IMG/VR virus record: IMGVR_UViG_3300028805_000071
Direction: 5' to 3' (one strand)
DNA length: 64,000 bases
DNA from: an uncultured virus (IMG/VR IMGVR_UViG_3300028805_000071)
Lineage: Duplodnaviria > Heunggongvirae > Uroviricota > Caudoviricetes
Both the position numbers and the translations under genes were made by a program. Numbering within the stretch: position 1 is the stretch's first letter; each line of letters begins with the position of its first letter. A model generated the notes under the pieces. It had not been told where the DNA came from. It made no database searches and saw only the letters and a program-made list of their open reading frames with translations. This document shows, one piece after another, positions 9,737 through 51,798 of this stretch.

Positions 9737-12700
9737 TTATGCTCCTTCATCAGGATTCTCTGGGTCTGTTGAAGCAGGATTAACGGTTACGTTAAACGTA
9801 GCAGTCTTTCCATTATATGTTATTGTTACCGGTACATTAGTTGCAGTATCTGTAGTAGTTAATTCTGCGCCATCCGCTGGTGTTGCACTGTATCCAGAAC
9901 CAATAGATTCAGATGGCCAGCCACCACTATAATCAGCTGTTATTACCATACCAGTTAAATTTAATGAATCTCCACTAGTATATGTTGTTTGTGGAAGTGT
10001 AGTAACACGAATTCCAGTTAATTCTTTTGGAGGGGTTAAAGCTGCTTGATTTTGCTCTACTATATAATTAATTACAGTTTCTAAAGTAATTGGATTATGA
10101 TTTATATCTTCACCAACATTAAATGTTTTAATTTGGTCTCAAGTTGGCGCAGCGTTTGCTACAGCTGTAGCAATACGGTCATTCACAGTTGTTAATGTAT
10201 TGTTGCTGTCTTTACCATTATTTAAGAAACGATATAATTTTTGAATAGCTGTATTAATAGTATCTTCAGAAGTAATTCCATAAAGCTGTTGATTAGTATC
10301 TGGTTCAGTAAATCCTGTTAATGGTAATCTTCCTACAGTTGTTTTAGTAGCAGATATAACGCCAGTAGTCGGTGCAATAGATAATGCACTAATTATATCA
10401 GCCCCGTTATCTGTATTATTAGAAACACTAATATCAGGAATCGTTACTCTATGAGAACCATTACCATTTGCATAAATATGTCCTTTATTATCAAATACTA
10501 AATCTACAATTGTAAAACTTCCGCCAAAAGTCGGATTTACATCTGACACAGCTGCAGAAGATACCATATTAGCGTCATCATGCGTAATACTTATCTTATC
10601 AGCGCTAATTGTAGTAGTCAACCAATTATCCCCATTAATCGCCAATGTATCATGAGTTGCGCTTGCCTCAGCAGTTACCCCTGAATTATCTCCAGTAATA
10701 ATACCATAACTATTTGGCATAGTTAATGTTTTAGTATCTAATCCACTATAATGTCCCGCTTCATCAAAACTATATGTTGGAATATTAAATGTAACTGCTG
10801 CAGAAACTCCACTAGATAAGTTTGCTGTAGATGTAGTTGGTGTAACAGAATGAATATCATGTGCGATTGTAATTGAATTATTATTATTATTTGTTGCCGC
10901 ATTAATTCTAATTCATTTATCACCAGAATTAATAGCTAATGTGTCTTGTGTATTATCAGCAATTGTGCTAGTTGATGATAATATCGATGAGGTTGCGCTT
11001 GTATTATTTCCGATACCGTTTGTAGTAATTGTTTTAAAACCATAAGGTAAAGTATATTCATGCGAATGAATACCACTAACATGTCGTTTTTCATCAAATT
11101 CATAATCAGGAATATTAATTATATTAGTCCCGTCATTTAAATTTGTGCTATTTGAATTAGACGTACTTATTGCCGTGGTCGGTGTGATATGTTCAATAGT
11201 AATACTAGGGGTATCATGGTCAGGATTTATCGATAAATTAACTCATTGGTCTCCACCGCCAATACGATTAGGTCTATGTTCAATATCAAGATTATTAATT
11301 GGCGCACTATGCATTCTTCCATAATCATCAATAACAACAGTTTCACCAGCTTTAACCGTAGCAAAATTATTGGTTAAATCTTTTAAAGTATTAATAGCGC
11401 CATGCACTGTATCAGTATCTCTAGTATCATCAGCGCCGAATAATTTATGTGTCTCAAGAAGTAAACCATTTAAAGTATTTTTATCACGAGCATATCCTTC
11501 TAACTCTTCAAATACTTGCTTATCTTTTAACCAGCATAATTGAACACCATCTGGTACATCAATATTAGGATTCCACTCTAAATATTGGGGGAAAATATTA
11601 TTCTCATCAAACATGACGTGTTTATTAAATCTTTCATAATAATGAGTATCATTATTAACCCCATAACTTTCATTACTTAATAAATAAGTTTGCCCATCAT
11701 CACCTGTAATATCGCCATGTTGAGCATCGCGCAAATAATACTCGCCCGGAATATAAAATGAGTATTTTGTCTTCTCTGGGTCTTTTGTTTTAGCAAAATA
11801 AGTCCTATCTGCTGTTTTTATATAACTCTTATCTTTTATGATATCTCCAATAACAGGAGTATCTTCTCCATTCATTTTAATAATTAATGAATTATTATTA
11901 TCTTCTGTTACTATTGGCTTAGATACATAATAATAAGTGCCAGGAGCATATAAACTAATTGGTTGCGTATCTCCCAATGTCCATAATTGTAATGAAATTC
12001 CTTCAATATCAGATAATGTATGTTGAGCAGCCGACCCAGAAGTTCCAGTATCGCTATCATTGCTCCAAATATTTTCATAAATATCAGAAGTTACTCTACT
12101 ATATCTATGACTTGCGGCATCATAAGTATAATATGGACCATCCACATTTAATTTACGCACCCTATGAGTAACATTAATATAAACACTATCTTGACCAAGG
12201 GCATTAGTTTCAATAAGGTATAATTCATAGTGCTGATTACTTTGAGGGTCGGTGACTCATGATGAACTTGTATCTAATATAATTTGCCCAGTAGGTTCAG
12301 GTAAACTTCCATCTTGCGGAGTTGTCATTTCTAACTTATAAAAACGATTCGCTGCAAATCAAATTATGCTAGCTCCATTCGCAACACGCTGCCATGCTGT
12401 CGCTGGTATCTTATAATATTGGCGTCCAGCAGTTGGTAATTCATTTGTATCTAAAATATAATCATCGCCCTCCATATAATAATAGGTGTTCTTCACATAT
12501 CCCTCAGGCGGAACATCTACCTGAGTAAAAGAACTCCTTAAAGTAGGCTGATTTGTCTCAGAATTAATCCATTGATAATACTTTTTATTTTTCTTAAAAT
12601 CCGATACATTTCTAACCAATAAATAATTTTCGCCATATTTATCAAAATAAGTCGCAGGAATTGGTTCATGCACATCTGTTGGCTCAAAATGCGGCAACGG

Positions 12701-14305
12701 ATTTTTATTATTAGACACATTTTCTTCATCATATTGCGGACTATATTCGATACCAACTCTATAATAGCGCTCTCCGACTTCATCATCACTATACCAATAT
12801 ATTTTATCTACATCTGCAGTTTCACTTGCATCAGCACTTTTAAAATTAAAATCATCACTAGTTGCATCTACAACTATCATACCAATTAAATCATGCACCG
12901 TATTAATTGAACCTGCAATTGTATTAACTTCATCTTGAGCATATCCGATACCATGGCCAGTTTCTTTAGTAAGACGAAGTCCGAGCCTATGTTGTGTTGA
13001 CCCAGCATCTTCCCAATTAATATCTAAATTACGTGCTGTGGCCTCCTTGCCCAACACATTTCTTCCGCCATAAACTAAATCCCAAACACTTGCAATTGTA
13101 TCACCAATAGAAGGTAACATAATAGCAACTTCATTGGTATCAGGTTGTGCCGTTCTATTAACACTTCCATCAACGCCATACAATTGACCGCTTATACCAT
13201 TAAGGTCAATTGTAATGTTATCTTCTGGTATGTATTTTCCGGTAGTGTTATCATATTTTCAGACATTTTTTAATTGATGTTCTGCGTCTTCTGCTGCAAC
13301 ATCCCCAGCATATGTAATATATTCTGCATCAAAACCAGCTTTGTTAAAATACATCGCTGCCTTGCGAGCCTTATCTTCAGGCTTCATTGAACCATCATAT
13401 TGTCGTCTTGGGTAATGATAGCTCACATCTGAAGGATAGTTTAAACTCTCTTTTCCAACCTCACTAGTATCATTACTCCACACATCTGTACCAATAGTAA
13501 TATTGCTATCGTATATCGCAGGCTTTATCCATAAACCAGGATTTGATTGTATGTGTAATTTATAATAAACATTAGATGTATCTACGTCAAAATGCGGTGC
13601 TCTTGGTATTACGGTCGGTGCGTCTGCTGTAATTGCCAATGTTGGAACTATTGAATTAAGTTCTGCAACCATTGCAAAATATGGGGCGCCATCGGCGTAC
13701 ATTTTTTGCCATACAGTGCCATCATATCCTCTACCAGCACCAAATTGACGAGTGTCTATTAAATAATTAATTAAATAAGGATTATCTGTGTTTGCTTCAG
13801 AAACTAATTCAAGAGTATTAGTTTCAGTTACAAAATAATAAACAGTATGACGAGCAATAACTTCTGCAAATACCGTTTCTATCATATACTCAGGCTCTTC
13901 AAATGTGCCATCATTAACTACGGTATATAACGTCATATTGTCTTTAACTAAATAAAATTTATTTAAACCGTCGGCGTCTACGACAATACCACTAATATCA
14001 TCAACAACTTCAACTTTATCTAAATTATAATTTAAAGGAACACGGAAAATAACGCCCTGCGTTAAAGTAACCTCATTTTCTTCTCTTTCCGCATCAGTTA
14101 AATTAGAATATATTTTACCTTCCTTTAAGTAATAAGCCTGAAAATTATATACTTCTTTATCATAAGAAACTAAAACAAATCTGCCCGCAAATACAGCATC
14201 AGTACCATTCTCAACAGCCTCAACCATAGCTGAACGGCTACTAAATATTCGGTCAAAATTAAATTGTACTTTTACCGTATTATTAATATTTCCATAAAAG
14301 CCCAT
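9737..14305 (-). CDS. Large tail/fibre protein (1522 aa with TGA=Trp), C-terminal bacterial Ig-like domain
   Basis: Five track ORFs join in frame through TGA at 13259, 12359, 12257, 11243, 10913 and 10139. Ends with an Ig-like ELTGIRVTTLPQTTYTSGDSLNLTGMVITADY...TFNVTV segment. Confidence 0.85.
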
Positions 14306-14309
14306 CTAT

Positions 14310-14732: not shown

Positions 14733-14746
14733 GCTCCTTCTCCTCC

Positions 14747-15181
14747 TTAATATGTAACGGTGACTATAATATGAGCATTTCTATTGGTATTGTTTTCTAC
14801 ATCCATAGTATACCCTTCATCTACACTATCTACTGCATTAACTAAATTTAAATTGCGGAGCTGTGGATTTTTTATAAAATCATTTTCAACTGGTCCGATA
14901 TGAACATGAGTTAATTTTTGGTCTGTTTGTAAATCAAGGGAATATATGCCCGTTATTCCTAAAAATAACGGGCCTAATGGTGTTTTACCGTCTATACCAA
15001 TTCAAAATGCCGCGCCTGGGTCACCCTGAATCTCTAAACGAGTTATTCCTTCACTATTAAAAAGAGGTATTAAATCAGTTTTTAAAATATCTGCCGTTAA
15101 ATCAACTGGATAGTTTTTAGGACTCAGCGCTCCAGTCTCAGTATGTGTTCCATAATAACGGCACTGATAAATTTTATCCAT
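14747..15181 (-). CDS. Tail-region protein (144 aa, one TGA=Trp), missed by the ORF track
   Basis: AGGAGG RBS, ATG 15181, MDKIYQCRYYG..., TGA at 15002 aligning with Tyr of the paralogue, TAA at 14747. Confidence 0.8.
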
Positions 15182-15195
15182 TTACTAAACCTCCT

Positions 15196-18100
15196 TTAAT
15201 ATATTCTTTCAACGGCCTTAATAGCCGAAATCGTCATTGTTCCATTATAAGTTAACGGTAAACTAATACGCGAAACAATGTATTCACCGCTAACCTTACT
15301 ATTATCATCTTGAATATAAATTCTTGTATTAGGTTCTAAATGATAAACGGGTACGGCAGTTAATGAAACTGTTTCTGTGCAATAAGAATGTTTAAATAAA
15401 TTCTCATCTAACACATCTTGCGCACATTTACCTTGCGTACTAATAACAAACAAATCTTGGGTATCAAAAGCTCCAAGCTGCATATATACATATCCAGATT
15501 TGCGCTCCTGAGTTTGTATGTCATTTGTAAAAATAACTGTAGGAACTTCTCTAAAATAAATGGCTTTTATTGAGTTGTCATTAACAGATTTTGCCCTATC
15601 TCCAATAGTTTGAATACTGTAATGATTAGCTAAATCACTGCCGTTATCCATCATATCAAACCAGAAATTAAGCGTTTCAGGCGAAGACGTAACAGCTTGA
15701 TTCCACCCAGTTTCGCTATAATCTCCATAAGAGGTAGTTTCTGAAAATGTTAAAACCAAGGTCTCTTTATCGTTATCATATTTATCATTTATAATTAAAT
15801 ATTTATCTATTGTTTCTACTTTGTACCCACCATTATATTTTTTTAACATATCATTATGCTCTTGGTCTAATTGTTCATAGTATTCTTGCAACATTTGCAT
15901 ACGTTCTTCATTAGAAATATCTAAAACAGCAATTTTATCACGATATTGATTTATTTTATCCATCCTCGCCTTTGCATAATTTTGCATATAATTTTCATAA
16001 TCTGCAAGTAAAACCGAGTCTAAATTTATTCTACGCACAGCGTGAACAATTGCTGTTCTTGGTAAATCATCTAGCGTAATTTCTGCCCCGCATGTATAAT
16101 CTTCTTTTCCATTCTCATCCATGGTTGATATAGCTCAATATAATTTACCATCTTGTATAATAGCATCTTTCATATCGCCACCGCCCAGTCCAGGAGGGCA
16201 ATATAATTGACGCCAAAAACCTTCTAAATCAATATAGAACGGCTCGTAACTAGTGATACCATTTGGATAACGCCATTCGCCATTTAAATCTCTGCCATTA
16301 TTTTTGCGTATCTGCACATAAAAGTCATCTTCATGATTATGTTTCCTATAATCTTTAGCCATTTGGTAAATAATTTCACGCCAATCGCAAGAATAAATAA
16401 CTATAACATTTGCACCAAAATTTTTATAATAATCTATTGTTTCTTGTGTTGTCAGCTGATTGACAATAACAGTAACATCCTCTGCTTTAATACGATTTAT
16501 TACTTGTTCATCAGTAATTTCTTCATATTTAACTAATGGAATATCGGGTTTATAAATATAAGCAGTAGTACCAAAACGGCGATAATCAACAAACTCTTGA
16601 TAAAGATGCACACAATTTGGCCCATGTTGATACCATCCAAGAGTGCCATCTGAATTAACATCTAATACGAATATACGACTTCCGCTATATTTTCCAAAAC
16701 CATGCTGATTACCATCATATGTAAATGTCGAAACATTATCTATTCCACCACGCCCTAAGCTCGATGTATAAGTATGTCCAATTATTGGTTCAGGAATCAG
16801 ACTATTTAAATTTGTAAATGTTACTCCTTCTTCTACATAGTCTCCAACTCGACCTTCGGGATATTCCCCCGTAAGTAATTTATAATATTCCGCCCAGTCT
16901 AATACATTTCACCAATCTTCTGATAACTGAACTGCGTTGCGAGTTTTTGTATAACCAGCTTTCTTTCGTTCTTGTTCTTCATAAACTTCTTGTTTCATAG
17001 AAGTTATCATTTCTTCGAAACTATCAGAGCCATCAGCAACTTTTTTTCCGTTTATATAAACTCCTTCGAGATTTTCCGTGGTTCAAACAAGACCTTCATA
17101 TGTTTTATAATAAGTCGGTTTCTTACCAATAGCATAACGCATATGTATTGGCAAGCTAGCGCCACTAACAGATTTACGTTCGCCCCAAAGAGAAAAATCA
17201 TTTTTGATATTTAATAAATCTGGTGTATTAGCAAAAGCAGTAATTAGTTCATTATTATCAAATACCCAAGTATGCGCTGAAGTATAGGCTTGATTTTCTA
17301 CATAGGTGTTTTCTTCCATGTACAAATCATCGCTACCAGCCTCGCTAGATACTATTGGATTAAATTTATGGTCTATAAAGTTCATTTTCTTTTGAAATAC
17401 AAAATGTCCTTCTAAATCATAAAAATATTCAAATTCGCCAAGCATCGTAACAATTTTATCTAAAATACTTGTTAAACTTTCGCCAACATTACCAACTAAA
17501 TCTCCCGCATAAATAATGTCCGTAGTACGATAACCACAGGTTTGTCCATAACTAATTTTCGCTACAGTAAATGCCTGCGTGCCAATAGTTGTCTCGCCAG
17601 TATTAGGATTTGTATCAACCGAATAAAATTCTGTTGGCACATAAGTATCATTACCATAGCCTTGGCGCTGAGTTCTTGTATCTAATTTATATTTTGCATT
17701 AGCATCTTCACTCAAGTCTTCAATCATAATTGTAGTATCTTCATCAACCGGTTTAAGTTTCATTTTACCATCAGCGTTTGGCGCCATTTGCGCACCAATT
17801 ACTTCGCTAGTAGCAGCATCAATAAATAAATACATCGGCGCACCACCAACATATTTTAATAACTCTAACCCCAAATCATCTAAATCATTTACCATAATAT
17901 TACCAAAAGGTTCACCGGCATATTCATGCACAGCTTCTTTAATAATATACTTGACAGGTAATTTAGTGATTGTAGTGTTGCCATTGGCTACGTCGTAGTA
18001 CTCCTCAGTATCAAATGTAATAGATGCAAAGAACGACCCATTAACTTGGCCATTCAATAAGCACATCTTATCTTTTCCCTGTAACGAAATTGTATAATTA

Positions 18101-18516
18101 TTAGTTGTATAAGATACACTAAAATTAGTAAATAAATATAAACCCATAGGGAACCAAATAATATCAGGATAATTTTTATAAGGATAAATATATCTATTTA
18201 CATCATCATCCCAATATTCATAATTTTTTATCATCTCTGGCAACGTAAGGCCAATTTCTAATTTAAATTTATTATTTAATCCCCAATAGTAATCATTAAT
18301 ATTAACATCTTGCGCCACCATACTTAATGAGCAAGAACGACGCATACTAGAAGTTCCGTCTACATTGACAGAACCTCCAGTAACACGACCTTCTACACAC
18401 TCTATTGGGCGCTCATCAAATGTTAACGCAGTCACCCTAGCAAATACCTCCCTATGACGGAAGGAATAGAGTTTCTTAAGAAACTCTGTATCTAATAAAG
18501 GATTAGAGGCGGCCAT
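15196..18516 (-). CDS. Tail tip/baseplate hub-like protein (1106 aa with TGA=Trp)
   Basis: In-frame join through TGA at 17083, 16909 and 16135. N-terminal GSVNVDGTSSMRRSCSLS and C-terminal VPVYHLEPNTRI...GEYIVSRISLPL are typical of phage tail hub proteins. Confidence 0.8.
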
Positions 18517-21500
18517 TATTTATTAACCACTCTGTTAATTCTGCGTCAAGAGTTGTTAAAAATTCTTGATATGCCTGCTCAACTTCATCCTCGCTAGGGT
18601 CTAAAGATTCACCTGTGCTGGCGATATTCGCAGCGTATTCATTAACTTTCTTTTCTCAAGCTTTCTTCTTTCGATATGATTGAGTGCCTTCTGTTGTTTC
18701 AAGATTATAAATTGATGTCTTTAACATATACACAGCCGTAGTTGTTACACCAACGCCAGTAAAGAAATCATGCTCTGGGAAAGCTTGTTTAATAATAATT
18801 TCATCAGTATCTTCTAAGTCTAATATCTGTACATTATCTTCTGAAGGAGTAGCGCCATATTGTCCAACAGCTTTATCTTCAGTTTTATAGCGTTCAACCA
18901 TCGCATCCCATTCGTCATAGTTATAAGCATCTCTATCAAAATCAGCAGCACCTATATCGATATAAACTTTAGTAGAATAATCCTTTTCAAGAATTACTTC
19001 AGTAGTATTGCCGTCTACATAAACGCTGGCAATATCATGCAGTCGACCATCCTCTTCAAAATATAATTGTTTATTTATTTGTTGAGGGTGTGCCATTAAA
19101 ATAATTTTATAAAGTACAGCAGGGTTTAAATTATTACCGCCAACAGTAACGCGTTGTTTTAAATCTCTGTCTAAATATAAATAATTATACATTATATTAT
19201 TTAAGAGAGGATATTTATGGTCAACACTGCTATCTCCAATCACATTACCGCTAATAAAATTATCTACATTATTTAATCCTTCTTCTTCTCAACGAGATTC
19301 TACTACTTCAAAAAATGTGTCTTTAGTATATTCTGATTTATTAATATCTGGGAAATTTACCATATTCCAAAAATATTGTTTAACATCGAAATATAACGGC
19401 TCCATTTCACGTTTATCAAAACGCAATTCTAATAAACGCCAAATACTTCTCTTAAATAAATCAGTATCTGCTCTGCTGGCGCTCGGTAAATAATCTTGCA
19501 ATGCCCAAAGAAGATTAAGATATTTATATTCGGGCTTATTATCTACATATTCAATACCAATATACTGGCCATAAATTTGTTTTACTTGCGCTTCATCAAC
19601 TATAGAATCCTCAATCAACGCAAACACATTTTCAATCGGTTCCTCATATGAGAATATAATATTCGCATTGGTATTGCGCCATGCTTCTATATTATTTACT
19701 ATGCCATTTGGAGTTTCAATTGTTTCTGGGTACGTAATAGATGTAATAATATCTTCTGTTACAAAATGATAATTACCAGTAGACCCAATTCGAATGTATG
19801 TTGGAAGAGGATTTGTAGCTAATTTAATTTCAATCATAGTACCAGGCACAAAATCAATTAAATTAACTTCACTGCATCCGCTTGCGCTATTCTTTAATTT
19901 ACTTAACCAATTACCAGTAATAGCTTCTGCATCAATAATAGGCTGATTATTACTATCTAATATAAGTTTATCATCTTCATCACGCTTATAAAAATCAGAT
20001 ATGGTAACAGTGCTCCATTTGGGTACTGTAGCAATAAAGTCTTTTTTCTGCGTTAAGCCATACTCTTTTAATTTTTCATAACTATATTTCTCAACCTCAT
20101 AAGCCTGAGATGTAAACGTATGTAACATACGACCAACAGTATCATTAGGACTTAATGAAGTATTTAATAAACGCACAATATAATTACCCTCTGCCGGCGA
20201 ACGGAATAATTTAGGCTTACCATTATTTAACCAATCTAATACAGTTAACTTAAACCAGCGCTCAGCCGCAATATTATAATTTAATAAACTCTTATTAGGG
20301 ATATGCGGTATAGTTTCTGTTGCCTCCCAAGCAGTTAGTTCAGGGTGGCTTTGTGTAGAACTTACATAATTTAAATCTACCGCTTCGGTTTGATTTCTAT
20401 GTTGCTTATCAGTTAATAAACGCATTTCTCCTTTAGTCATAAATAATTCTTCGTCGTCTGACCAATAGGAAATTAAACCACTAATTGGAAATTCTTTGTA
20501 ATATACAGCCCCATTTCTAAAAATAAATGGGAACTGACTTCCAATAGTATCAAGTTTACTTTCTAATACGTCAATTTTAAAACTCGAAACTTTTGGATTA
20601 TATTCTATTTTTAATTGGCGAGTTCCGTCAAATAAGAACGCATGTTCAAAATCTGCATAAATAGAATTGCTGGTAATACGTTCTGAATATAATCCGTTAT
20701 CATTATATTGTTGTAAACCATAAATATAAGTTTTACCTTGTTCAATAGTAAAGTCTTTAAAATTAATATCGCTTGGTAAAACTGATTGTAAATTTTGACG
20801 TTGAATTTCTACCCAATGAGTTGGGTCAGATGTATCTAAACGAGTTAATACAAAACCACCAGTAAGCGGTAATGTTGCTGTTGGCGGATTATTTTGCGCT
20901 TCAAGTGCTACATATCCATTGTCATAATCTAATGAAGCAGTTAAAGTAATAGGGATATCCATCGCAGCATTATTTCTCGCTAACACTTTATATTTATAAG
21001 TTTTTAATTGTATATTATTAACAGTATTCACAATATATTGGATATAATGAATACCAGTGTTACTCAAATCATTTAAACATTCTCATTGGTCAGAAGATTG
21101 ATTAGCAGTTACGTCATTGTCAGAACGATGAACGCATGTGCCAGAATCTTCTACGATATTATCGGCACTATCGGTAATAACAAAACGATAAGAATATTCT
21201 TTTTCTGTTGGGTCATCAGGACCGGGCATGTAAGTACCCACGAAACTGTGGTTAAAATTATTAATTTTTAAAGTATCTAAACCTTCAATGGTTATACTTG
21301 GCTTATCGGTATATTTCACCACACCAACAGTAGAATAATACCCAATTACGCCATACGTATCTATATAAGCGATTTGTATTTTATAAAATTGTCCAGCGTT
21401 TAACTTCTCTATGTATTTTGATAAATCAAAAATAACTGATGGGTTAGTGCCACCCCATCTAATTACTCCGTTGTCAATTTCAAATAAAAAGGAATTACTC

Positions 21501-21640
21501 TGAATAGTTTTGACCTTCAGAGTAATTCCACTAACTTCTTGTCGTCCAACGGACCGGTTCATAGAGAAAGGAACTGTTAAAACAGTTCCGTAAAAGGCTG
21601 GAATTGACCCTTCTATACTTGGGGGGTACAATTTAGCCAT
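18503..21640 (-). CDS. Tail-associated (distal tail-like) protein (1045 aa with TGA=Trp)
   Basis: In-frame join through TGA at 21083, 19289 and 18656; ends TAA at 18503 overlapping the next start; WLNNGKPKLFRSPAEGNYIVRL motif. Confidence 0.8.
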
Positions 21641-22130: not shown

Positions 22131-25100
22131 CTAATGTATTATCTTATCATCATTTGTAGCATTATGAACAATCAAGTTGTTTGCAAAATAAGTCTTGTTT
22201 TTTGGAACAACAATATTGTATACTTCATAATTTTCTGCATATGGTTGAGCTATAATTTGTTTAATACGATATGTTTCATTATTTATACTCAATACCTCAT
22301 CTCCAGTATGCAAAAGTTGCGTCCTAACTTTATGCTCTTTATATGCCATCTCTATATTTAATGCTTTTCACCCTTCTGTAGTTAATAAAGGATGGCTACC
22401 AGTTAAACTTAAAATTTTTCCATTTTCCAAACAAATATCATAAATATAATGACTTGGGAATGGTGTAGCTCCGATACTTACAACAGCAGGCTCATAAGCT
22501 TGTGTTTGTTCATTATAAGATAATACTATATCATTATTTTCAATATTTTCAATATTTTTATATGAATAATCCGCCATTAAAATTGGAGTGCCTTTAAGAA
22601 TGCATCCGCTATCGCCACCACCAGAGCCACCTCCACCGGACGAAGGTAATGTTACACCATTACCCCATGCAGTTTCTGAAGTAGACCCATGTTCATATGA
22701 AGCAGACATACCAAACCCATAAATCGTTTTATAAGTAAATCTAGCCTTAGCAGATAATGTATTACCATTAAGCGACAAATCAATTCCTTTAATTATACCT
22801 ACGACATTTGTTGTATCATAATTAACAGGTTGACCACCTAAATATAAATTGTCAGCGTGTACCTTACTACCAATAACAGTACCGCCGCTAATAGTACTAC
22901 CACTAACAGTACTAGCGCTAATGCTGCCAGAAAAAACACCACCACTCGCATATAATATACCATCATTTGTCACTCCAAAGTTAGGACCAATTGTAAATCT
23001 TCATACAGACGCTCCATTATGTCCAGCAATTTGACGGCTAAATACACCAGAAGATAATCTTACGTCGCCACTTTCTGGCGCTTCATTAAAATTACGGCCT
23101 AAAGTACCTGTATATAAACTATTTGCATTAATTTGCCAACCGCCAATTTCGGCAGATGTAGAAGTTAATTTACCTGCTGAAGTAACTTTAAATTTTGGAT
23201 TGGTTGAATTTGGAATATAAATAGTACTACCAGTAATAGTACCAGAGAAATTGCCTTCTTTAGCATATAACTTGCCATTAGTATCTACACCAAAATTCCC
23301 ATGAGAATATAACACTCAACCATTACCAGTTGGGTCATTACCATTTACCCTAAATTTTTTATCATCATCATCTGTATTTAATACATATCCAGTAGATGAA
23401 ATTAATAATGCGCCATCTTTACCGCCCTTAAATGATTTAAAACTTCCATCTTTTAAATCAATCTTAGTACCTTTAGAACCTTCGGTGTATCCTTCGGTTT
23501 GTAAATAATACCCATCATTACCAACATGTAATATTTGTTTTTTTGAATTGCCAGAGCCTCCCGGTGCGACATTCGCGTTAACAAATACTTCCAATAAATG
23601 GCTCGCGTTACCACTCATGGTTATACGATTTATTTTATTGTCCTCAGAGGCTGGATTAATAATATCAATATATGGGGCATCCATCGCAGCGGTGCCGCCT
23701 CGACGTGAAGTAGTCCCAAGAAAGTCAAGTTTCATACCTTTTTTACTATTACTAGTATATCCAGCATTTTGAACTGTGCTTTCTCAAACATCATTTTTAT
23801 CTCCATCTTTTACCCCAGCTTTAAACATTAACTGCGCTTGAGAACTATCGCCTAAATAAGCGGTACCATTAGTATTAATACCAAAAGTATGATGCCCATT
23901 ATGCCTTCCATATAAACCATATCCTGTTTCATAGGATGGGGCTGCATTAGGATTTTTTTGTGGGTCTTCGCCTTGTAACTCGCCCATAATAACACCAGTA
24001 AAACTATTATCCGGCTCCTTTTTACCAGCAAATACAGCGGCTGAAGCAATACGATTTGCTTTAGTATCTATTTGCAGTGAACCATCTCATTGATTAAGGA
24101 ACGTATTAGTAAATACATCACGAGTAATAAGAACTGGTTGTGCCCATAAAGTTTGATGGCCATTAGTATCTGTCATCTTTACTGACATTTTATAATTTAC
24201 ATCCGCATAATACATCGATGGTAAAATTAAAGTCGCTAAATGCTCTCGCTTTTCCTGCTCTGGGCCACCAAGTTTTATATTAGACAAATATGGTAAATCA
24301 CTATATACAACATTTTTATGATTTACTACTGCTACTTCAGGAATTCCATCTGTGGCATCATACACCGCTATAGTTTCTTTATGCTCATAAACGCCTACGT
24401 CATAATCTAAACCATAACTATGTTCTCGGCTTAAAATTTGATATTTATCTTTACTTGAAACTGCAGGCGCCGTATTTGTATAAGTATATACTACGCGTGT
24501 TGTGCCAACACACCCAATATATTTTTCATCAATACGTATTGGTATTAATAAATATTGATTATATTCACTATTGTTATAAGTAGCCGTACATTTTATATAA
24601 GCACCTACTCAGTCATCTTCAGTAATGCTATTTTTGGCACGGCGGTCACTTTTAATCTGTAATCGATATTCATATTTTTTTGGGTCCTCTGAAATCGTTA
24701 CAGTCTCAACCGTAAATATATTCGCATGACTTAAATTACCAGTAAATTGTTCTACGTCCCAAGTATACGTAACTTCCGTTTCTGGTAAAGCGCTATTACG
24801 TTCATCATATAATTGGGCAAATAAAGTAATATAACTATTTTTATCATGCCCGCTTGTCCAAGCCGGCACATCTTTTTCTATCAATAAAGGTGGATTATCA
24901 GCAGCATCAAGCGGCGGATTTGGGTCTTTCCAATATTCATCGCCTAATCGTACAATCAATGAATACTCTGTGCCATTTGTGCCATGGGCTCCAAATGTTA
25001 AATCAACCGATTTTTCATATAATTTACCATCTCGCAAAATTTTGCACATAATGGTATTATTCATAAAATGTTGGTTCCAATACTCTTTAATACGATAAGG

Positions 25101-39680: not shown

Positions 39681-40658
39681 TTAATAGAGAGATTCAACCA
39701 CAATCGTCTTGGTAGAATCGTTGCAGTTTAATTCAAACTGCCCACTATATGATTTAAGCCATACTAATTCTATACTGCGACCATTTACTTTATATGCAAC
39801 AGGATACTTCTCATCAATTGACCAGTGAGGGACGTCAAGTCCTTCATAAGTATACGTTGCTTTGATTTTAGGTTTAATAAATCCTTGCCCTAAAATTAAA
39901 TCGGTAGATGTAGGTTGGTCAATTGGTTTGACTATTAAGCCATCTACAACGCCATTTTCCATGTCGTCTTCCATTTCATTAGCATAATATTCAACCGCAC
40001 TAATTTGCAGCACTCCTGGCATACTAATTGTATCTGTGGCTTCTACTCTCCAGCAAGTATTAACATCGCCATCTTCAATTCCTTTCAAATAAAACTTTGC
40101 ATAACGTCTAAAATACTCTAAAGTAGATTTAGTCTTTGGCATTAAAATATTTAAAGAATAATTTGGCCTGTCAATACTATCGCCCGATTTTTGTATATAA
40201 TTTATTTTAGTTTCTACTGGTCCTCTAACAGCAAGATAAGTAGTTTCTACCTCATTATCGCTATTTATCCAAGAGACTTGATAACTACATTTGCGGATGT
40301 CGCCTCTGAAATAAGCTAATTCGGTTAAATCTTGTAAGTAAATAAGCCATTTGGTTCCAGTATTACATCATTCAAAAATATCGCCGGGCTTAAATCCATG
40401 TTCAAACCCAACTGATACGATTTTATCATCGTAGTCTTGCTTTAATTTATTCGGATTAATTAATGCTCGAATAAATGCTTTCTCATCCGTTTGATTCAAT
40501 CGTTTAATTTTTGCGGCTTGATAAGAATATAATACGGCATGGTCTAAAGACCACCGCTTGTCCTTAATCATCCTATCTTGCTGCGGGGAACCGCCTCTGA
40601 ATCTTAATCGTCTTGCCATAAGACCCAGTGCACTAATATATTTATCTTGGTTATCCAT
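39681..40658 (-). CDS. Putative head-closure/neck protein (325 aa, one TGA=Trp)
   Basis: Track ORFs join through TGA at 40368 (GDIFE[W]CNTGTKWLIY). Confidence 0.75.
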
Positions 40659-42149: not shown

Positions 42150-42539
42150 TTAAGCATTTACAAATTCTACTGTAAACTCTTCATCGTTAATAGAAATTGT
42201 CTTTGGTAAATCTTCTGCCTTAGTCCAGAAAATAATATGTCCAGCACCAAGTCCTACAGAAGCAGCTTCATCTACATCATCTTGAGTTAATGTGTAGTTA
42301 GCACCCCATTTAGCACCAACGATTGTCTCAAGTCCAGTATTTAAATCTAAACCAATCCATTTTCCACTACCTTGAGAAGGGTTAGTAGAAGCAAAGCTCT
42401 TTAAGCTGTCCAGGCTACCAGAAATCTTGATGGTTGTACCATCCTGAGCCACTGTCACAGCGTCCTGGTTGAATTGTGAATCAGCCTGATTCACGTCTGC
42501 AGGCGCGGTAGCGAGTTTATTCGCTGTGACGCTCGTTAA
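42150..42539 (-). CDS. -1 frameshift C-terminal extension of the major capsid protein (~129 aa, beta-rich)
   Basis: No RBS before the track GTG. The frame is open back to the slippery heptamer G GGA AAT (42545-42539) just before the capsid TAA. Confidence 0.75.
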   Translation of the reverse strand, partial: LTSVTANKLATAPADVNQADSQFNQDAVTVAQDGTTIKISGSLDSLKSFASTNPSQGSGKWIGLDLNTGLETIVGAKWGANYTLTQDDVDEAASVGLGAGHIIFWTKAEDLPKTISINDEEFTVEFVNA

Positions 42540-43675
42540 TTTCCCGAGCCACCATTGCCGGAATCGCCAGAACCGCTGTTGTCTCCAGAACCGTTGTCAA
42601 CGATAACAACTGTGTTCTGAGCAGTATCCTTGTAATTCCAAACAGTCATATCCTCAAGAGAAGTATCGTGGTATACGCAAATGTTGTTAGTTAACATGCA
42701 AACAACTCCAACTTTCTTGTAAACCTGAATTTCTCTTGACCAGTCTCTGTTGTCTCTCTCAGAAACAAGTGTGCCACCTTCGAAAGCAATCTTAACGGGC
42801 TTTGTATCTCCACCAGCCGGGATAATCCAGCAGTTAGCAGAGTTGATAGCCTTTGTGGTCATTGTTTCATCAGCGAATCCCTGCTTAAGGATAACAACAT
42901 TGTGTCCCTTATATCCAGCAAGTCTTCCAGTTCTATAAAGCTCATCCTTCATAGCTTCGGTGTATCTCCAAGCATCCTGAGGAATCATCTTTACAGCAAA
43001 TTCATATGTGCAATAAATTGTGGGCTCACCATAAGCACTTGCAATGGCAAGTAACTGGTCAAACTTAGCCTCATCAAAATCATTAGCGTTAACCTTGTTA
43101 ACAGCGGGTAACTGATTTAAGGAACTATTAAGAGCTTCACCAACTTCTTTGTAGATAAGCTCATCCATACCTTCCATAACGATAGCAGTAAGTTCAGCGA
43201 AATCTACTCTACCATCGAGGAATTCCTCAAATCCGATTTCAGCAGCTCCGCCGATAGCACTTGTAGGTACTTCGAAGCTTTCAGTAGCCTTACCAAGCTT
43301 GAATACTTCGTATACACCAGCAAGTCCTACTCTGGTAATGAACTGCTTAGCTCTATTTCTTGTGTTTAATTTTCTACGGAAGATTGGCTTGTCTCCCTGA
43401 GCAAATTGCTTAACTTCAGCAAACTGGTTGTAAGCAACTTCTACAACCTGAGGAAGAACTTCGTCTAATGTTTCCTCGATGATGGAGAAAACAAGATTCT
43501 TATTCTCTCTGTAAAGCTGAGGAGTTCCAGCAATTTCATTAAACTCTTGACGAAGAGTTTCATTTAATTCGTCGTAGCTGTAGTCAGTGCCGTTATAGCT
43601 ATAGGCAACAGAAGCACTACGATTAGCGCTAGCGACTTTTTTTGCTAATGCCACTAAATTTTTCTTGTCTAACAT
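42536..43675 (-). CDS. Major capsid protein (379 aa)
   Basis: Size, position after the scaffold and decoration genes, strong RBS, followed by a terminator; no TGA. Confidence 0.8.
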   Translation of the reverse strand: MLDKKNLVALAKKVASANRSASVAYSYNGTDYSYDELNETLRQEFNEIAGTPQLYRENKNLVFSIIEETLDEVLPQVVEVAYNQFAEVKQFAQGDKPIFRRKLNTRNRAKQFITRVGLAGVYEVFKLGKATESFEVPTSAIGGAAEIGFEEFLDGRVDFAELTAIVMEGMDELIYKEVGEALNSSLNQLPAVNKVNANDFDEAKFDQLLAIASAYGEPTIYCTYEFAVKMIPQDAWRYTEAMKDELYRTGRLAGYKGHNVVILKQGFADETMTTKAINSANCWIIPAGGDTKPVKIAFEGGTLVSERDNRDWSREIQVYKKVGVVCMLTNNICVYHDTSLEDMTVWNYKDTAQNTVVIVDNGSGDNSGSGDSGNGGSGN

Positions 43676-45696: not shown

Positions 45697-47313
45697 CTAA
45701 TTCTTTGACTCTTCATTAGCCAGAGTTTTATCGCTCTTTTCTGATTGCTCCTTCTCAGGGCGACCAGCAGAGTTCCCCTCTACATTACCTTCAGTTTTAC
45801 CACTAGAAGATTGAGACTTGTTGCCCAAAACATCTGTGCTGGACATAGTAGATGACATAAGAGGTGGAATCATAATCTCACTCAGATGAAGCATATTGTT
45901 TTCAAAGAATGCAGTGTTGATAATATCGCTTTGTGAATGTCCAAGAGCGATTTGCGGTAACATTTTAGAATATCCAATTTGTACTTGCTCTTTGTACATC
46001 TTTGATAATTCTTTATAATTATATTGTGTTGTTTCTAACATATATAATCTAAAGTTAAATTTTTTAGCATACTTTGGTTCAAGATACTCTTGAGTAAGTT
46101 TATCAAAGAAAATTCTAAACTGTAATAATAAATGGCGCATTGAACCTTCATCAGATAATACAGATTTTTCTAACGCAAGATTTCCATCTGTATTGAATAA
46201 GTTCTTTGAAACACCTAATGCATTATATACAGTTCTTTCAACTCTTTCTAATTGGTCATTTGCTTCACTAGCATTTGTATCACTAATATCGATAGATTCT
46301 ACATCTGCAAAAGTAGTTAATACATCTACACCAATAGCACGACTTAACATCATAACCGCATTATTATGAATATCTGCGGCTTCATCAACGTCAAAAATTA
46401 AATCTCCATTTTTATCTCTTGGTAATTTTTGAACTAAAATTTTCATTAACTGTTGTAATTGTTTACGACGGTCAATGTCTTGAGCATCATCTAAATCTAA
46501 AATATTAGGGATGGCGTTTACGAACAATGGTAAATCGTCGTCTCCTCCCATGTCATGCAGAGAGAATTTAATTACAGAACCTGGTTCTAATAAATACCAA
46601 CTACCATATTGAACGCCCCACTCGTCTCTTGGTAATTTACCTTCTTTATATAACATATACCCCTTTGCAAATTCGGGCGGGAACATTTTTAAAACTCTCA
46701 TACGATAAGCAGGGTCGGCAAATTCAGCATCAAATCATTGCATATTAAATTCAACAGCTGGTAAATTACCTACATAATATCTTACTCGACAATAATCAAT
46801 AGGTAATTTTTGCACTAAAAATCCATGATTGCCTTCAAATACATAACCATAATAACATCCGTCTAATATTACATCACGAGAAATCTTATTACATAAATTC
46901 TTTAAATATGAACTGTCTAAATAATTTAACACACGATTAAATTGTTCAATAAGTTTTTCCTCTTTTACCTTTTGGTCATATACCTCTGGCACAATGTACC
47001 AATCCCACCTATACATATTAGCATAATAATCACATACCTTTTGATAAATTCCGTTAACTCTATAAAAATATCTTGAAATTTTTCTTAAAGTAGGTAAATC
47101 TTTTCTTGCTAATGCTCTTAATATAAAATGTTTATCGGCATACATGCGCTCTGGGCCATTAATATATCGATAATAATTACCTAATTGTATTGTCGCATCT
47201 TGTACTGTTTTTACGCCGATTTTAACTTTATTATACTCGGTTGGGAGGGGGCCATCAACTAAATTAAAACCTTTTTCATGGATGGTTTCTTGCTTTGTTT
47301 TTTCTTCGTCCAT
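45697..47313 (-). CDS. Portal protein (538 aa, one TGA=Trp)
   Basis: Track ORFs join via TGA at 46735; lies between terminase and protease; C-terminal PPLMSSTMS...GRP. Confidence 0.8.
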
Positions 47314-47329
47314 CAATTAACCTCCTCAT

Positions 47330-47692: not shown

Positions 47693-47701
47693 TTCATCCC
47701 C

Positions 47702-49429
47702 CTAATTCATAAACATCCAATCTTTTGCATTAAACCGCTTATGTTTTCTATTCTCTTCTTCATGTTTAATATAATATAAACCATATTCCAACGCAGAGAA
47801 TTTATCTTTTCGTATTTTCTTATTTGCCTGTTTTAAATTAATATTTAATCCTTCATTTTCTTCACGCAAATTCAACATTTCTTCTTTTAAAATCGATGTA
47901 AGAGTAAATGGGCGTAAATATTCAGCTCTTTCTTCGGGCGTCATATTCTGGCCCACCTTTGTTCCTAATAATTTATTCTTTGCGTCTTTCTCATCAATTA
48001 AAAATTTAATTTTTCCAGCGTTTAATCTTGCTTGTACATTACTATGAGCGTCGCTGTTGATTGGTGCATTCGCTTTAATAATATATACAGCCTCTTGTTC
48101 AGTCTTTTTTGTCTTATATTTATGATAAGAACCATCATTATCATTATAAATACCAAAATCAGGATATATATCCCCGGTAATAGGGTCTTCTTGCGACATA
48201 ACCATCTCATCAATAAGACCAATACCAAGTCCATTACCATCTATAACCAATCTTCTTGCCTTATATTTATAATATAACTGCTTTAATTTAATCGCTTGAT
48301 ATTTAAAATGCTCATCAGATAGTGTATAAATATTTACAACCGACGCAATTGAGTCTCCCATCGTTTGTGGATTTACTTTGAATACTATAGCAACTGAATC
48401 GCAGTCTTTACGACCAACGTCGACGCCAATAACATAATAACTTTGCGACCCACTGCGTTTAGAATACTCATATTCTGGCTTTTGGAGCTCGCGATTTCGG
48501 TCAAAAGCTTCTGCGCGGAAGAATGCGTCTTCGCTAGAGCCCGACCATTCAGATTCATACTCTCTAGAAAAGGCGGCGTCATTGAAAGAGCCGTCATTTT
48601 TAAGGTCTTGAATGAAATTTTTGCTTTGTAGACCCGTTAAAACAGGAATTCTTCAAGTTCCGCCCATTACAAAAGCTTTATCTGGCTCTGTAACCATCCA
48701 AACTAGGAATTGAATGAGTTTATCATAACTAAAAGTGCCTTTTCAGCCAGCTGTGGTTACAAAAATTTGCGATTTATTTAATGTTTCATCATCGTGACGA
48801 GTTCCATCCATCGCTAAACGTGATACGTTCATAGTTGGTAAGATAACTGTAGATAAAATATCGCCATCTACGCCGACACACTCTTCAATTAAGCCTCCGT
48901 GGAAACGCTTACCACGAGAACGCTCACTTGCGGCAACGTTTGTAAGCATCGAACCGCCCTTAAACATATAAATAACAGTATCTTTAGACTCACGTGTGCG
49001 TCCAGGACGTCTATCTAGCTCATTTTCAAAGGCTGGAATTAATGAACAAATTTCATTAACCTTATCTTTTGCGATACCAGCGGCCTGCTCTTTACCTCCA
49101 GAAGTAATAAACAGCTTACTACGGGGGTATAAAATACAACGGCACATTAAAATCATAATAGATAAGAATGATTTTGAATAGGCTCGAGGGAAAACCCCGT
49201 AGACATACTTATAACGCATGGCCACTCGCAAGAAAATTCGTTGATAAAAATAAAAATGGAAGTTCTGCGGGTTGCCTTGCTCAAGCATAAAGTCTACAAA
49301 TAAATCAGGGTATTCCCGCCAAAACGCAATATATTGACGAATGGCGGGTTTAACCGCTTCAATACGTTCTGGGGAAATACCTATTTTCTTTCGTTTCGTC
49401 GATAAATCTAATAAATCTTGCAGAGCCAT
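47702..49429 (-). CDS. terL: Terminase large subunit (575 aa, two TGA=Trp)
   Basis: Walker A-like FPRAYSKS, Walker B GGLIEE, motif III VTTAG[W]K (TGA 48743), GGT[W]RIP (TGA 48653), nuclease GVDVGR, IDGNGLG and KDKFSA. Confidence 0.9.
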
Positions 49430-50665
49430 TTAAAACACCTCCCCGGTGTCTAATAGCTTCTTTAAATATTCATCGTCAGCAGCTTCTTGCTCTTCTTCAA
49501 AGTCATTAAATTCATTATAATCTTCTTCAGTAATAAATTCAGTGGAGTCCTCGGCAAAGATTTTTTCCTCAAACTCTTCATCGCTGCCCCAAACCTCATC
49601 TTCAGACACATCTTCTTCTTCAGCAGCTTTCTGTTTATCAGCATTAATATCTTGAACAGCTTTTTCAATTAAAGCGCCAAGGTGCGGGTCTTCAGAAATT
49701 AAACGACGAGTATAATTTTGTAAATCTTCTAATACTCTATCCGCCTTATCCTGCGGTCCATCAGTGTAATAACGAGGAATAAAGCCATCTTGTTCGCAAA
49801 TCATAACCAATTCAGAAACAGCATTTGCGTAATCACCATTTTCTGCTTTATTTTGCGCAGCGGTAAACTTGCCCGAACGCATTAATGCGTCATATACTTT
49901 ACTAACCTTTTGGAATCCATCAACATCACCGATATCCAAAAGCTGGTCCATCTTTAAAGAGGCTTTACAAATCTTCTTTAAAGTATCAATATGGCCAGCA
50001 GCTTGAATATCATATGACTCCATCATGTCATTATAAAGCTGTTCCATTTTAACCCATTCTTCGGGTTTATAAAGAGCACCCCATTTTAAACGTAAATAGG
50101 TAACATCTTCATCAGTTAATCCTAAATCATCGGCAGAAGCCTCAGGAAGTTGAGACCAGCGCTCAACGGCATTCCCTGTTTCTTCTTCATCTTCTTCTGG
50201 CTCTTCATCAGGACGAGGCGGCATTTGAGTTCTGCCTTGTTCAATAGCAAGAGCTATGTCAGCAGCGTCGTATCCTTGGCGACGCATCGTGTCTTTAATT
50301 TTCGCATCCGCTAATTCTTGTAAAAATTCTGTATCTTTCCAACGAAAATCTTTATATTGTTTAATTCTCATAGTGGAAATATACCGACCCAAGATAGTTT
50401 TACCGGAAACGTCTCTGCGATTGCGTCCGTATCGACTTAATAATTTATTTCATTGTTCTGGTATATATGGAATATCAAGTTCCTCTAAAACTGGTTTATA
50501 AGTTTCAGGGTCCCAGTTATCGATATGCATCGTAAGACAGTTCTTACATACATTCATAATTCCATCTTCTGGGTATTTTTCAAGATTATTAGAGCGATAG
50601 AAATTATCGGCACTCATTGTTCGATGACATTTGTCGCAATAGTACAATTTTTCATCTAAACCCAT
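49430..50665 (-). CDS. Zn-finger protein, putative terminase small subunit (411 aa, one TGA=Trp)
   Basis: CDKC...CKNC N-terminus, LDIPYIPEQ[W] (TGA 50450); abuts terL. Confidence 0.65.
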
Positions 50666-50717
50666 ATTTTCGCTCCTTTCTTTTTTTTATAAAAAAAGAG
50701 GTTTTTCACCTCTTTTT

Positions 50718-50763
50718 CTATATATTTTGGCTTTTTTTATATGTTTATTGATGTTTTTTGTCC
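50718..50763 (-). promoter_or_regulatory. Degenerate copy of the late promoter motif
   Basis: GGACAAAAAAC...ATATAG, one nt shorter, upstream of the packaging/head operon. Confidence 0.35.
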
Positions 50764-51798
50764 ATTTCTGCAATTTTTACAAATAGAATAAAATCCGTCT
50801 TTACTTGTATTGTTTTTACTGAAGTAACGTGAGTGCGCCAATTTCACTTTACCGCAACGACTGCAGCGTTTATATTTGCCTTTTTCTTTAAAAGTATAAT
50901 ACCAATTAAGAAAATATTCTTGCGATAAGTCTGAAATTAAATTAGGAATTTTCTTGCGCCATAATGAAGAAATATATTCTAAGGAGTGGGTTGTTCCAAA
51001 TTCTTCGTCTAAAACTTCTTGAATGGCTTGATTAGAGAGTCCATCAATTTTTAATTCAGTAATACGTAAAAGTAAAGGATGCGATTGAAGAGCGGCCCAA
51101 GAAATTGTATCAAAATCTTGCATGATACACCATAAATCACTTGTGGGGTGTTCTCACGCATTTTGCTTTAAATTAGAATAATTGCATAAGATACCAGAGC
51201 AACATCTAGGGTCACATAAACTAATCCCGCTCCAGCGCACGGTCCCATCGGCTTCAACCCATTCTTCACTTTCCAGCTTTACTGTGCTGGGAAGGGAGTA
51301 GTGAATTGAATGGGCATGAATTAAATACTCGCTTTTAATTTGATATTGTTGTTTACGAAAGTCAATTAATGCTTTCTTGGCGAGATACTTATTACGACCG
51401 GTCGCAGTTGCAGAAATCTTTTTCCATGCTTCAATGGCTTCTTGCACCTCCCGCATTCCCGGGAGGGTATCAATATCATGCTGTGTAATTTTTTGTTTTG
51501 GTTGGAAAAGGATGTGCTTATTATCATTTTTAATTGCATAAATACCATCTTCGCCATTCTCGAATTTATCAGCTAATGCTTGATAAGATGTTTCGCGTTT
51601 GTTGATGGTTACCATGCGGTTTTCTGTCAGGATTTTTTTCTGTTTGCGTTCTTCCTTTTCCATGCAGAAAATTAGATAGTCAGCTAACACTTCAAGGTCA
51701 TCATTAGTAAGGTCAGGATTCTCAGCGACAATTTGTTCTACATACTCCTTGCGCGCTAAAGAACTTTCTAATGTGTAATCCAATTTTACTGTTATCAT
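50737..51798 (-). CDS. Putative transcription regulator with sigma-region-4-like HTH and C-terminal Zn finger (353 aa, one TGA=Trp)
   Basis: Join via TGA at 51154; LKIDGLSNQAIQEVL...SLEYISSLW HTH-like; CSRC...CKNC. Confidence 0.6.

Follow-up and report, generated by a model that had tools for sequence, protein, structure and literature searches.

Late genes of the window and their in-frame TGA codons

The window analysed here is a 64,000-nt stretch of an uncultured virus of the Caudoviricetes (IMG/VR record IMGVR_UViG_3300028805_000071). It is part of a large siphovirus-type phage, relatives of which infect Firmicutes. One long late module occupies the minus strand from position 51798 down to position 1 and includes, in this order, genes for a sigma-factor-like protein, a phrog_3314 protein, terminase, portal, head and tail proteins, a 2571-aa tape measure and large tail/fibre proteins. 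Small early genes lie on the plus strand between 51.9 and 64 kb. Many of the late genes are interrupted by in-frame TGA codons and, as judged by the sequence comparisons below, TGA in these genes is a Trp codon.

Between positions 9737 and 51798, 46 in-frame TGA codons were counted in 12 minus-strand genes (Table 1). The first-pass annotation had given about 47 in 13 genes, which is near but not exact. A count of 48 in 13 genes is reached only if an upstream extension of open reading frame (ORF) 42150–42680 is accepted; this extension shares 145 nt with the end of the capsid gene, and no TGA is present in the shorter ORF starting at 42494. Neither TAA nor TAG occurs in frame in the 13,384 codons of the recoded block, whereas the other two frames include 0.069 TAA plus TAG per codon.

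Coding density under codes 4 and 11 was compared, as the first-pass annotation had proposed. ORFs of at least 100 aa cover 78.2% of the minus strand under code 11 (41 ORFs) and 96.5% with TGA as sense (24 ORFs); in controls with TAG or TAA as sense the cover is 81.1% and 84.0%, respectively. Under code 4, fragments are fused into full-length terminase, portal, tape measure and tail proteins, as had been described. Thus, PHROG matches flank the TGA codons of the 575-aa terminase on both sides, and the 539-aa portal aligns to positions 60–496 of the 501 positions of phrog_2739. The late genes were also said to close in TAA or TAG near the next ribosome-binding site. Among the late genes, 27 have a visible stop, always TAA or TAG (TAG in four), and for 22 of 26 late starts a Shine-Dalgarno-like motif lies within the preceding 22 nt.

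The TGA codons recur in independent assemblies of close variants, six of six in L007 and two of three in L006, and the L006 terminase retains 97% protein identity at 86% DNA identity. Recurrence together with conservation of the terminase indicates that the TGA codons are neither errors nor signs of decay.

Separately, it was observed that TGA is followed by a purine at 40 of the 46 sites (G 20, A 20, T 5, C 1), as compared with 108 of 170 for TGG (Fisher p = 0.002).

Table 1. Features of the window, with in-frame TGA codons of the late genes given by their window positions
Feature	Coordinates	Strand	Length and codons
Sigma-factor-like late gene (phrog_5767)	50737..51798	-	353 aa; 1 TGA (codon 215, 51156)
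Conserved late protein (phrog_3314)	49430..50665	-	411 aa; 1 TGA (codon 72, 50452)
Terminase large subunit	47702..49429	-	575 aa; 2 TGA (codons 229, 259; 48745, 48655)
Portal protein (phrog_2739)	45697..47316	-	539 aa; 1 TGA (codon 194, 46737)
Major capsid protein (HK97-type)	42536..43675	-	379 aa; 0 TGA, 4 TGG
Conserved virion-module protein (phrog_31155)	39681..40658	-	325 aa; 1 TGA (codon 97, 40370)
Virion structural protein (phrog_2729), probable tail tube	37328..38308	-	326 aa; 0 TGA
Conserved protein, no assigned function	35914..37260	-	448 aa; 8 TGA (37197, 37035, 36945, 36879, 36657, 36318, 36186, 35928), 0 TGG
Tail tape measure (PF10145)	27477..35192	-	2571 aa; 8 TGA (33278, 33191, 31733, 31655, 31601, 29276, 28820, 27782)
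Large tail protein, C-terminal Hint/intein-like domain	22131..27359	-	1742 aa; 11 TGA (27143, 25640, 25394, 25259, 25199, 24611, 24089, 23786, 23318, 23003, 22370)
Tail/baseplate-region protein (phrog_30026)	18503..21640	-	1045 aa; 3 TGA (21085, 19291, 18658)
Tail protein (phrog_32343)	15196..18516	-	1106 aa; 3 TGA (17085, 16911, 16137)
Small late protein	14747..15181	-	144 aa; 1 TGA (15004), 0 TGG
Tail fibre-like protein, C-terminal Big_3 domain	9737..14305	-	1522 aa; 6 TGA (13261, 12361, 12259, 11245, 10915, 10141)
Four distal fibre-like genes	3..9585	-	284, 557, 1558 and >729 aa; 0 TGA, 42 TGG
Early region, small genes behind repeated sigma-70-type promoters	51855..64000	+	Standard-code compatible, TGA as stop

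Amino acid encoded by TGA

Every TGA was masked as X in the queries, because the alignments are then not pulled towards Trp. A homologue column was available for 37 of the 46 TGA sites. Trp was the commonest residue at 19 of these and shared first place at 2; Tyr or Phe led at 6, and 9 had another leading residue or none that stood out. Gly, the dominance of which the first-pass annotation had named as refuting the assignment to Trp, was the commonest at one site only. A tblastn comparison with 21 relatives, which covered 16 sites, gave 64 Trp, 27 Tyr, 19 Phe, 14 other residues, no Gly and 3 gaps. The share of Trp among residue cells is 52% for TGA columns and 57% for TGG columns of the same proteins; hence TGA columns behave as ordinary Trp columns. 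With substitution frequencies derived from the same alignments, the log-likelihood was −208 for Trp, −362 for Tyr and −779 for Gly.

Full-length homologues of the protein encoded by 35914–37260 number 63, and Trp fills four of the eight TGA columns in 59/59, 47/62, 63/63 and 62/63 of them. The remaining four columns are variable (Leu/Ile; Thr/Asn/Gly; Tyr 39 with Trp 15; mixed). Trp also fills the TGA column of the phrog_31155 protein (codon 97, 13/13) and predominates in the phrog_3314 protein (codon 72, Trp 15, gap 1), in the sigma-factor-like protein (codon 215, Trp 8, Asn 2, Glu 1, Phe 1) and at codon 259 of the terminase (Trp 16, Tyr 5). Other aromatic residues prevail at codon 229 of the terminase (Tyr 13, Phe 6, Trp 2) and codon 194 of the portal (Phe 11, Trp 3, Tyr 3). 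Coverage is sparser further along the module, with three of eight sites in the tape measure (Ala 3, Leu 1; Tyr 2, Phe 1, Leu 1; Trp 4, Asn 1), one of three in the phrog_30026 protein (Tyr 2, Asp 1) and two of three in the phrog_32343 protein (Tyr 2; Trp 1). No homologue column was obtained for the small late protein 14747–15181.

Ten of the 11 TGA sites in the 1742-aa tail protein are covered by protein homologues; Trp is the commonest residue at six, including site 1091 (6/6), and ties at two. At eight of the ten sites the Trp count is at least 2, as expected if both closest homologues (54–57% identity) carry Trp, the count being made without splitting the rows by homologue. The eleventh TGA lies in the Hint domain, at a position where the first-pass annotation had expected Trp. 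It aligned with Trp in all four printed PDB alignments to DnaB mini-inteins and, when it is counted from these PDB alignments only, Trp is the commonest at 7 of the 11 sites.

The Hint/mini-intein-like domain itself spans 22134–22652 (minus strand), at the extreme C-terminus of the tail protein. It begins with Cys after a Gly/Ser linker, ends with an HN motif and matches DnaB mini-inteins at E ~1e-6. Given its position at the very C-terminus, it may serve for self-cleavage and not for splicing.

In the 1522-aa fibre protein, Trp occupies site 1131 in 120/120 homologues and site 1021 in 99/120, and three further TGA sites are variable. Site 1131 lies in the internal repeat that had been picked out before as pairing TGA with TGG, and the codons are as described (GAT AAA TGA ATT versus GAT AAT TGG TTG). 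Strains also exchange the two codons. Codon 194 of the portal gene is TGA in the window and TGG in L006, and codon 300 of 39681–40658 is TGG in the window and TGA in L007. Thus, homologue columns and codon exchange between strains, along with the intein alignments and the internal repeat, agree with the earlier assignment of TGA to Trp.

Uneven distribution of TGA and the spared genes

TGA accounts for 46 of the 174 Trp codons in the recoded block (26%), the other 128 being TGG. In 35914–37260, all eight Trp codons are TGA (Fisher p = 1.5e-5 versus the rest of the module). Conversely, none of the 42 Trp codons in the distal fibre-like genes at 3–9585 is TGA, as compared with 46/174 in the block (Fisher p = 1.5e-5). 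To the left of the window, the overlapping contig L025 includes two more genes with one and five TGA codons among TGA-free genes; hence the recoded region extends beyond the window.

Within the block, TGA is lacking from the capsid gene 42536–43675, its neighbour 43696–44361 and the probable tail-tube gene 37328–38308 (all minus strand). The first-pass statement that TGA is read as Trp across the morphogenesis genes therefore holds for 12 genes but not uniformly, the capsid, likely tail-tube and distal fibre genes having none. Assignment of the capsid gene is based on 12 BFVD matches at E ≤ 0.001, ten of which are named capsid proteins; its structural model is of low confidence (pLDDT 53), and no useful sequence match was found in PDB. 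The tail-tube assignment comes from weak sequence matches to tail tube proteins only (E 0.04).

Homologues of the three spared genes were compared in TAG-recoded relatives (G002–G004 and the L-loci). In-frame TAG is present in them at 0.7 per 1000 aligned cells, as compared with 12.2 in other late genes; the values for capsid and tail-tube homologues are 0.8 and 1.3, respectively. As far as these codon counts go, the most abundant virion proteins appear to avoid the recoded codon in TGA and TAG lineages alike. Suppression would thus seem to be imperfect or to carry a cost.

The all-TGA gene 35914–37260 lies between the tail-tube and chaperone-like genes, and its full-length homologues are 250–455 aa long. 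The structural model (pLDDT 85.5) consists of an N-terminal helical bundle and an alpha/beta domain. The protein has no Pfam or PHROG family, a Foldseek search of the model against PDB gave nothing at E ≤ 0.001, and VIA-align returned generic helical bundles only (Z ~10). Invariant residues raised the idea of a PD-(D/E)xK nuclease, which found no support in any search and was rejected.

Early region

The 24 plus-strand ORFs with a Shine-Dalgarno sequence end in TAA (17), TGA (5) or TAG (2) and include 31 TGG codons. Stops of the TGA type are thus present in 5/24 early ORFs versus 0/27 late genes (p = 0.018). Four of the five are followed by TAA or TAG 2–7 codons further on, one lies within an ATGA start-stop overlap, and two lie within the TTGACA box of the next promoter; the fifth, in ORF 56387–56581, could instead read through into the next ORF. 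In view of these contexts, either code can read the early region, in which TGA acts as a stop; the early genes are compatible with the standard code. A preprint by Borges et al. (bioRxiv 10.1101/2021.08.26.457843) describes this difference between early and late genes for phages in which the code changes in the course of infection.

More than 12 copies of one arrangement, consisting of an A/T tract, TTGACA, a 17-nt spacer, TATAAT, a strong Shine-Dalgarno sequence and a small ORF, occur in 51855–63820 (plus strand). About 1.9 kb of the region (57.4–59.3 kb) has no convincing gene on either strand and includes a CA-rich low-complexity tract without ORFs at 58136–58574. Minus-strand code-4 ORFs in 58–63 kb were rejected as spurious, having no family matches and a junk-like composition; the plus-strand ORFs of the same segment match deoxyribonucleotidase-type PHROGs.

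Genome context

The genome is at least ~137 kb in size (the 64-kb window plus ~72 kb of an overlapping contig) and AT-rich, with a G+C content of 33–38%. Genes for lysis and replication fall outside the window. A 50-base pattern from the left end of the window matched two metagenome contigs, of which L025 (75,360 bp) is 99.96% identical across the overlap. Exact 50-base patterns from both window ends, and a pattern from the far end of L025, had no match in viral contigs. All three assemblies compared come to an end near 62–64 kb. By identity of the terminase large subunit (TerL), the closest cultured relatives are the phages Geobacillus E3 (49%), Enterococcus H1 and VRE9_4 (46%) and Alicyclobacillus KKP_3916 (46%).

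Relatives and their codes

A TGA-recoded relative of 138 kb (G009) was found through a homologue of 35914–37260; its TerL is 67% identical to that of the window and includes two TGA codons. In a TerL tree of 23 rows (quick IQ-TREE run, SH-aLRT support only, midpoint root), the window groups with G009 and the contigs L008, L009, L022 and L023 (support 91). The sister group (support 100) consists of 11 TAG-recoded relatives, in which in-frame TAG lies mostly opposite Gln of the window proteins.

The four contigs in the group of the window, IMG/VR relatives that form one tight lineage, have in-frame TAG on 14 distinct columns in the terminase, the portal and three other late genes. In other homologues eight of these columns are mainly Tyr (17/17, 15/15, 13/15, 9/9, 9/9, 9/11, 7/9 and 8/13), one is His 10/Tyr 7, one Phe (16/17), one Trp (12/15) and three are non-aromatic. 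At eight columns, some members of the lineage have TAG and others Tyr. From the predominance of Tyr and these exchanges, TAG looks like a Tyr codon in this lineage. No tRNA was found on the four short contigs, and no report of TAG as Tyr in a natural phage code was found in the papers searched. A phage TyrRS:tRNA(CUA) pair inserts Tyr in vitro according to Seki et al. (PMC12636597).

One TerL clade (~64–68% identity) would accordingly hold three reassignments, namely TGA to Trp in the window phage and G009, TAG to Gln in the 11 sister relatives and TAG to Tyr in the four contigs among the TGA=Trp phages. The chances seem evenly balanced that the code was switched repeatedly within this clade and that sparing of the capsid and tail-tube genes, seen with either recoded codon, reflects a cost that suppression carries in general and not a timing switch alone.

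Two further features of the relatives were observed. The terminase match spans 2.0–2.6 kb, versus 1.7 kb, in L067 (1760–4332), L022, L023 and L020, with the break in L067 at residue 233, close to TGA codon 229 of the window. The extra length points to a candidate insertion (intron, intein or endonuclease) in these genes.

Bacterial tRNAs of about 88–94 nt are typically of the Tyr, Ser or Leu type. Long tRNA(CUA) genes are present in TAG-recoded relatives, one of 94 nt in G004 (L028 = G004:C1, ~47.5 kb) and one of 88 nt beside a 72-nt one in phage phAss-1 (OQ749652, 62445–62532). Given these lengths, the TAG-recoded phages may encode amber suppressors of different kinds.

Proposed decoding of UGA

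In-frame TGA codons that stand for Trp are restricted to the late genes and conserved between strains. The whole is best read, with a probability of roughly 85%, as two readings of TGA in one phage, with Trp in the late genes, the standard code in the early genes and a decoder that the phage probably encodes itself. The standard code of the host would read the early genes correctly. With TGA as Trp, full translation of the late genes (packaging, head, tail and fibre) would require an efficient UGA decoder. The decoder would be a phage tRNA derived from tRNA-Trp, with the anticodon UCA, charged by host or phage tryptophanyl-tRNA synthetase (TrpRS). Such a tRNA would compete with release factor 2 (RF2), and synthesis of the late proteins would therefore depend on its expression.

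A phage tRNA-Trp(UCA) is the probable decoder by analogy with G009. ARAGORN found 24 tRNA genes in G009, including a tRNA-Trp(CCA), and a 72-nt tRNA(UCA) is set apart from the main tRNA array, ~1.1 kb downstream of the gene for a GH25+CW_7 endolysin that itself has three TGA codons. The tRNA(UCA) is identical to the tRNA-Trp(CCA) of the same phage at 52 of 72 positions; in each of the two, an A-U pair forms the top of the acceptor stem and is followed by G. In bacterial tRNA-Trp, G73 acts as an identity element. Seki et al. (PMC12636597) note it in a phage tRNA(UCA) and also describe a phage TrpRS:tRNA(UCA) pair (AP1) that inserts Trp at UGA experimentally. By synteny with G009, in which ~79 kb separate the terminase and tRNA(UCA) genes, the tRNA(UCA) gene of the window phage is expected on the 75-kb contig, ~30 kb to the left of window position 1 and next to the lysis cassette.

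A number of observations weigh against this interpretation. The window yielded no tRNA or tRNA-like RNA (ARAGORN; Rfam at gathering score and at E ≤ 5, with E ≤ 1 on 57–64 kb), and neither did the 10 kb to its left (Rfam, L024/L025; ARAGORN on 13 loci) or the nearest record, G001 (61 kb, 36% complete; RF00005). No TrpRS, release factor 1 (RF1) or tRNA was found in the 74 kb examined, which cover less than half of the genome. Regarding Trp, it is the commonest residue at only about half of the covered columns (19/37), ten being non-aromatic or variable, one of them Gly. At this last one, site 349 of the 1522-aa fibre protein, 69 of 120 distant homologues have Gly, and Trp is present in two rows that presumably represent the closest two homologues. 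Nine of the 46 TGA sites are without a homologue column, and the aligned cells, being drawn from related sequences, are not independent of one another. For the three spared genes, the absence of TGA from their nine Trp codons is not significant within the window phage alone (p = 0.11). Pointers to the host are limited to the hosts of relatives (Enterococcus, Geobacillus, Alicyclobacillus and Bacillus) and to one related contig binned with a Clostridia metagenome-assembled genome.

Alternative explanations

The host itself could use code 4, as Mycoplasma-like Bacilli do, in which case the phage would share the code of its host and there would be no switch. TGA that is clearly sense in many genes, the AT-rich genome and the absence of a suppressor tRNA from the 74 kb examined would agree with this. 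Real code-4 genomes, however, have TGA at 80–90% of Trp codons according to the Mgcod preprint text, and the shares found here are far lower, namely 46/174 in the block and 0/42 in the distal fibre genes. TGA stops in five of the 24 early ORFs, one of them in an ATGA overlap, are equally unexpected in such a host. Furthermore, G009 encodes its own tRNA(UCA) besides tRNA-Trp(CCA), and recoding of TAG in sister lineages is inexplicable by adaptation to a code-4 host. This explanation is thus improbable.

About as improbable is a leaky stop, i.e. inefficient reading of TGA by the near-cognate host tRNA-Trp(CCA), with no dedicated decoder. TGA codons would then attenuate expression, and most products would be truncated. 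The same lack of a decoder in 74 kb fits this explanation, and the excess of purines after TGA could bear on readthrough. Against it stand ORFs with 8 and 11 TGA codons, several of them in essential virion proteins at positions where Trp is invariant; with that many sites, 50% readthrough per site would give, by arithmetic, less than 1% of full-length product. The dedicated tRNA(UCA) of G009 likewise argues for suppression by a cognate tRNA.

Assignment of TGA to Gly (code 25) or to another residue, such as Cys or selenocysteine, has in its favour the Gly-rich column at fibre site 349; it is very improbable given the log-likelihoods above, the absence of Gly from the 124 residue cells of the tblastn comparison, the four family-invariant Trp columns that are TGA in 35914–37260 and the exchange of TGA and TGG between strains. 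That the TGA codons arose in a decaying element, by nonsense mutation or assembly error, has nothing in its favour besides the stops themselves and is just as implausible, as TGA is the sole interrupter of the frames with no frameshifts needed, the same TGA codons are shared by independent assemblies, and the L006 terminase shows purifying selection across them.

Reading of TGA as Trp in the late genes has practical consequences for annotation. The standard code splits the late module into 41 fragments and leads to mis-calling of the terminase, portal, tape measure and tail proteins, so that the late module has to be translated with table 4 and the early region with table 11. The phage adds one more well-documented case of late proteins that depend on a decoding change during infection. 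The one conserved gene with TGA for all Trp codons, and avoidance of the recoded codon by abundant virion proteins in both lineages, bear on the question of why such codes exist.

Comparison with known recoded phages

In organisms that use NCBI table 4 (Mycoplasma, Spiroplasma) and in their phages, TGA also encodes Trp. Throughout their genomes it is the predominant Trp codon, at the frequencies given above from the Mgcod preprint text, whereas the window phage has it at 26% of Trp codons in the late genes, has TGA-free gene blocks and ends early genes with TGA. Genome-wide use of code 4 of the Mycoplasma type was therefore not found.

The phage phAss-1 (Babkin et al., PMC10607447; OQ749652) has a homologous packaging and virion module, with a TerL 44% identical to that of the window and with a portal, a phrog_3314 protein and tail proteins that align with their counterparts. 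As described there, the late genes of phAss-1 are also recoded, its genome is ~136 kb, and Clostridia are suggested as its host. The reassignment in phAss-1 is from TAG to Gln with tRNA-Sup(CTA), whereas that in the window phage is from TGA to Trp, and TAG still serves as a stop in four late genes. Members of the proposed genus Phassvirus share 82.7–86.4% nucleotide identity with phAss-1 in the same account. With a TerL 44% identical and TGA recoded instead of TAG, the window phage falls outside this genus, and its relation to phAss-1 is distant and not at the genus level. No megablast match to the window was found in the phage collection.

The mode of decoding proposed here, a phage tRNA-Trp(UCA) that would read UGA against RF2, is that of the TGA-recoded Jade phages and the AP1 pair. 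According to Fig. S6 of Borges et al., the tRNA(UCA), TrpRS and RF1 genes of Jade phages precede the lysis cassette, and the tRNA(UCA) gene of G009 likewise adjoins lysis genes. The window phage differs in that none of TrpRS, RF1 and tRNA was found in its 74 kb.

That TGA-to-Trp recoded gut phages are known, as the first-pass annotation held, is borne out by the preprint of Borges et al., the text of which describes phages of this type in standard-code hosts, with recoding in late genes of large Firmicutes gut phages. Full-length proteins restored by sense TGA, Trp columns and the contrast between structural and early genes were likewise found here. By the description in the preprint, the window phage can be set beside the Agate clade, with which it shares a large genome, Firmicutes relatives, TGA in late genes, a preference for TAA stops and a low G+C content. 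Agate genomes are given as 154 ± 27 kb, with one lineage at ~127 kb, and have predicted Firmicutes hosts, low G+C and TAA as the preferred stop; codes 4, 15 and 11 are mixed within the clade. The preprint further reports that TGA accumulates in structural and lysis genes, that a few gene families prefer TGA over TGG and that a suppressor tRNA is present in only 35% of code-4 genomes. The likeness extends to a TGA-preferring gene family, which in the window phage is 35914–37260. The TGA-preferring genes named for Agate encode a tail protein, located upstream of the lysis cassette, and an intron endonuclease, and may differ from this one.

Since the phenomenon, its restriction to late genes, the mixing of codes and the preference of gene families are all present in Borges et al., the recoding is not new in principle. 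It is of an already published kind, of which the window phage is one further case, and the additional details recorded here are worth recording but leave the overall picture unchanged.

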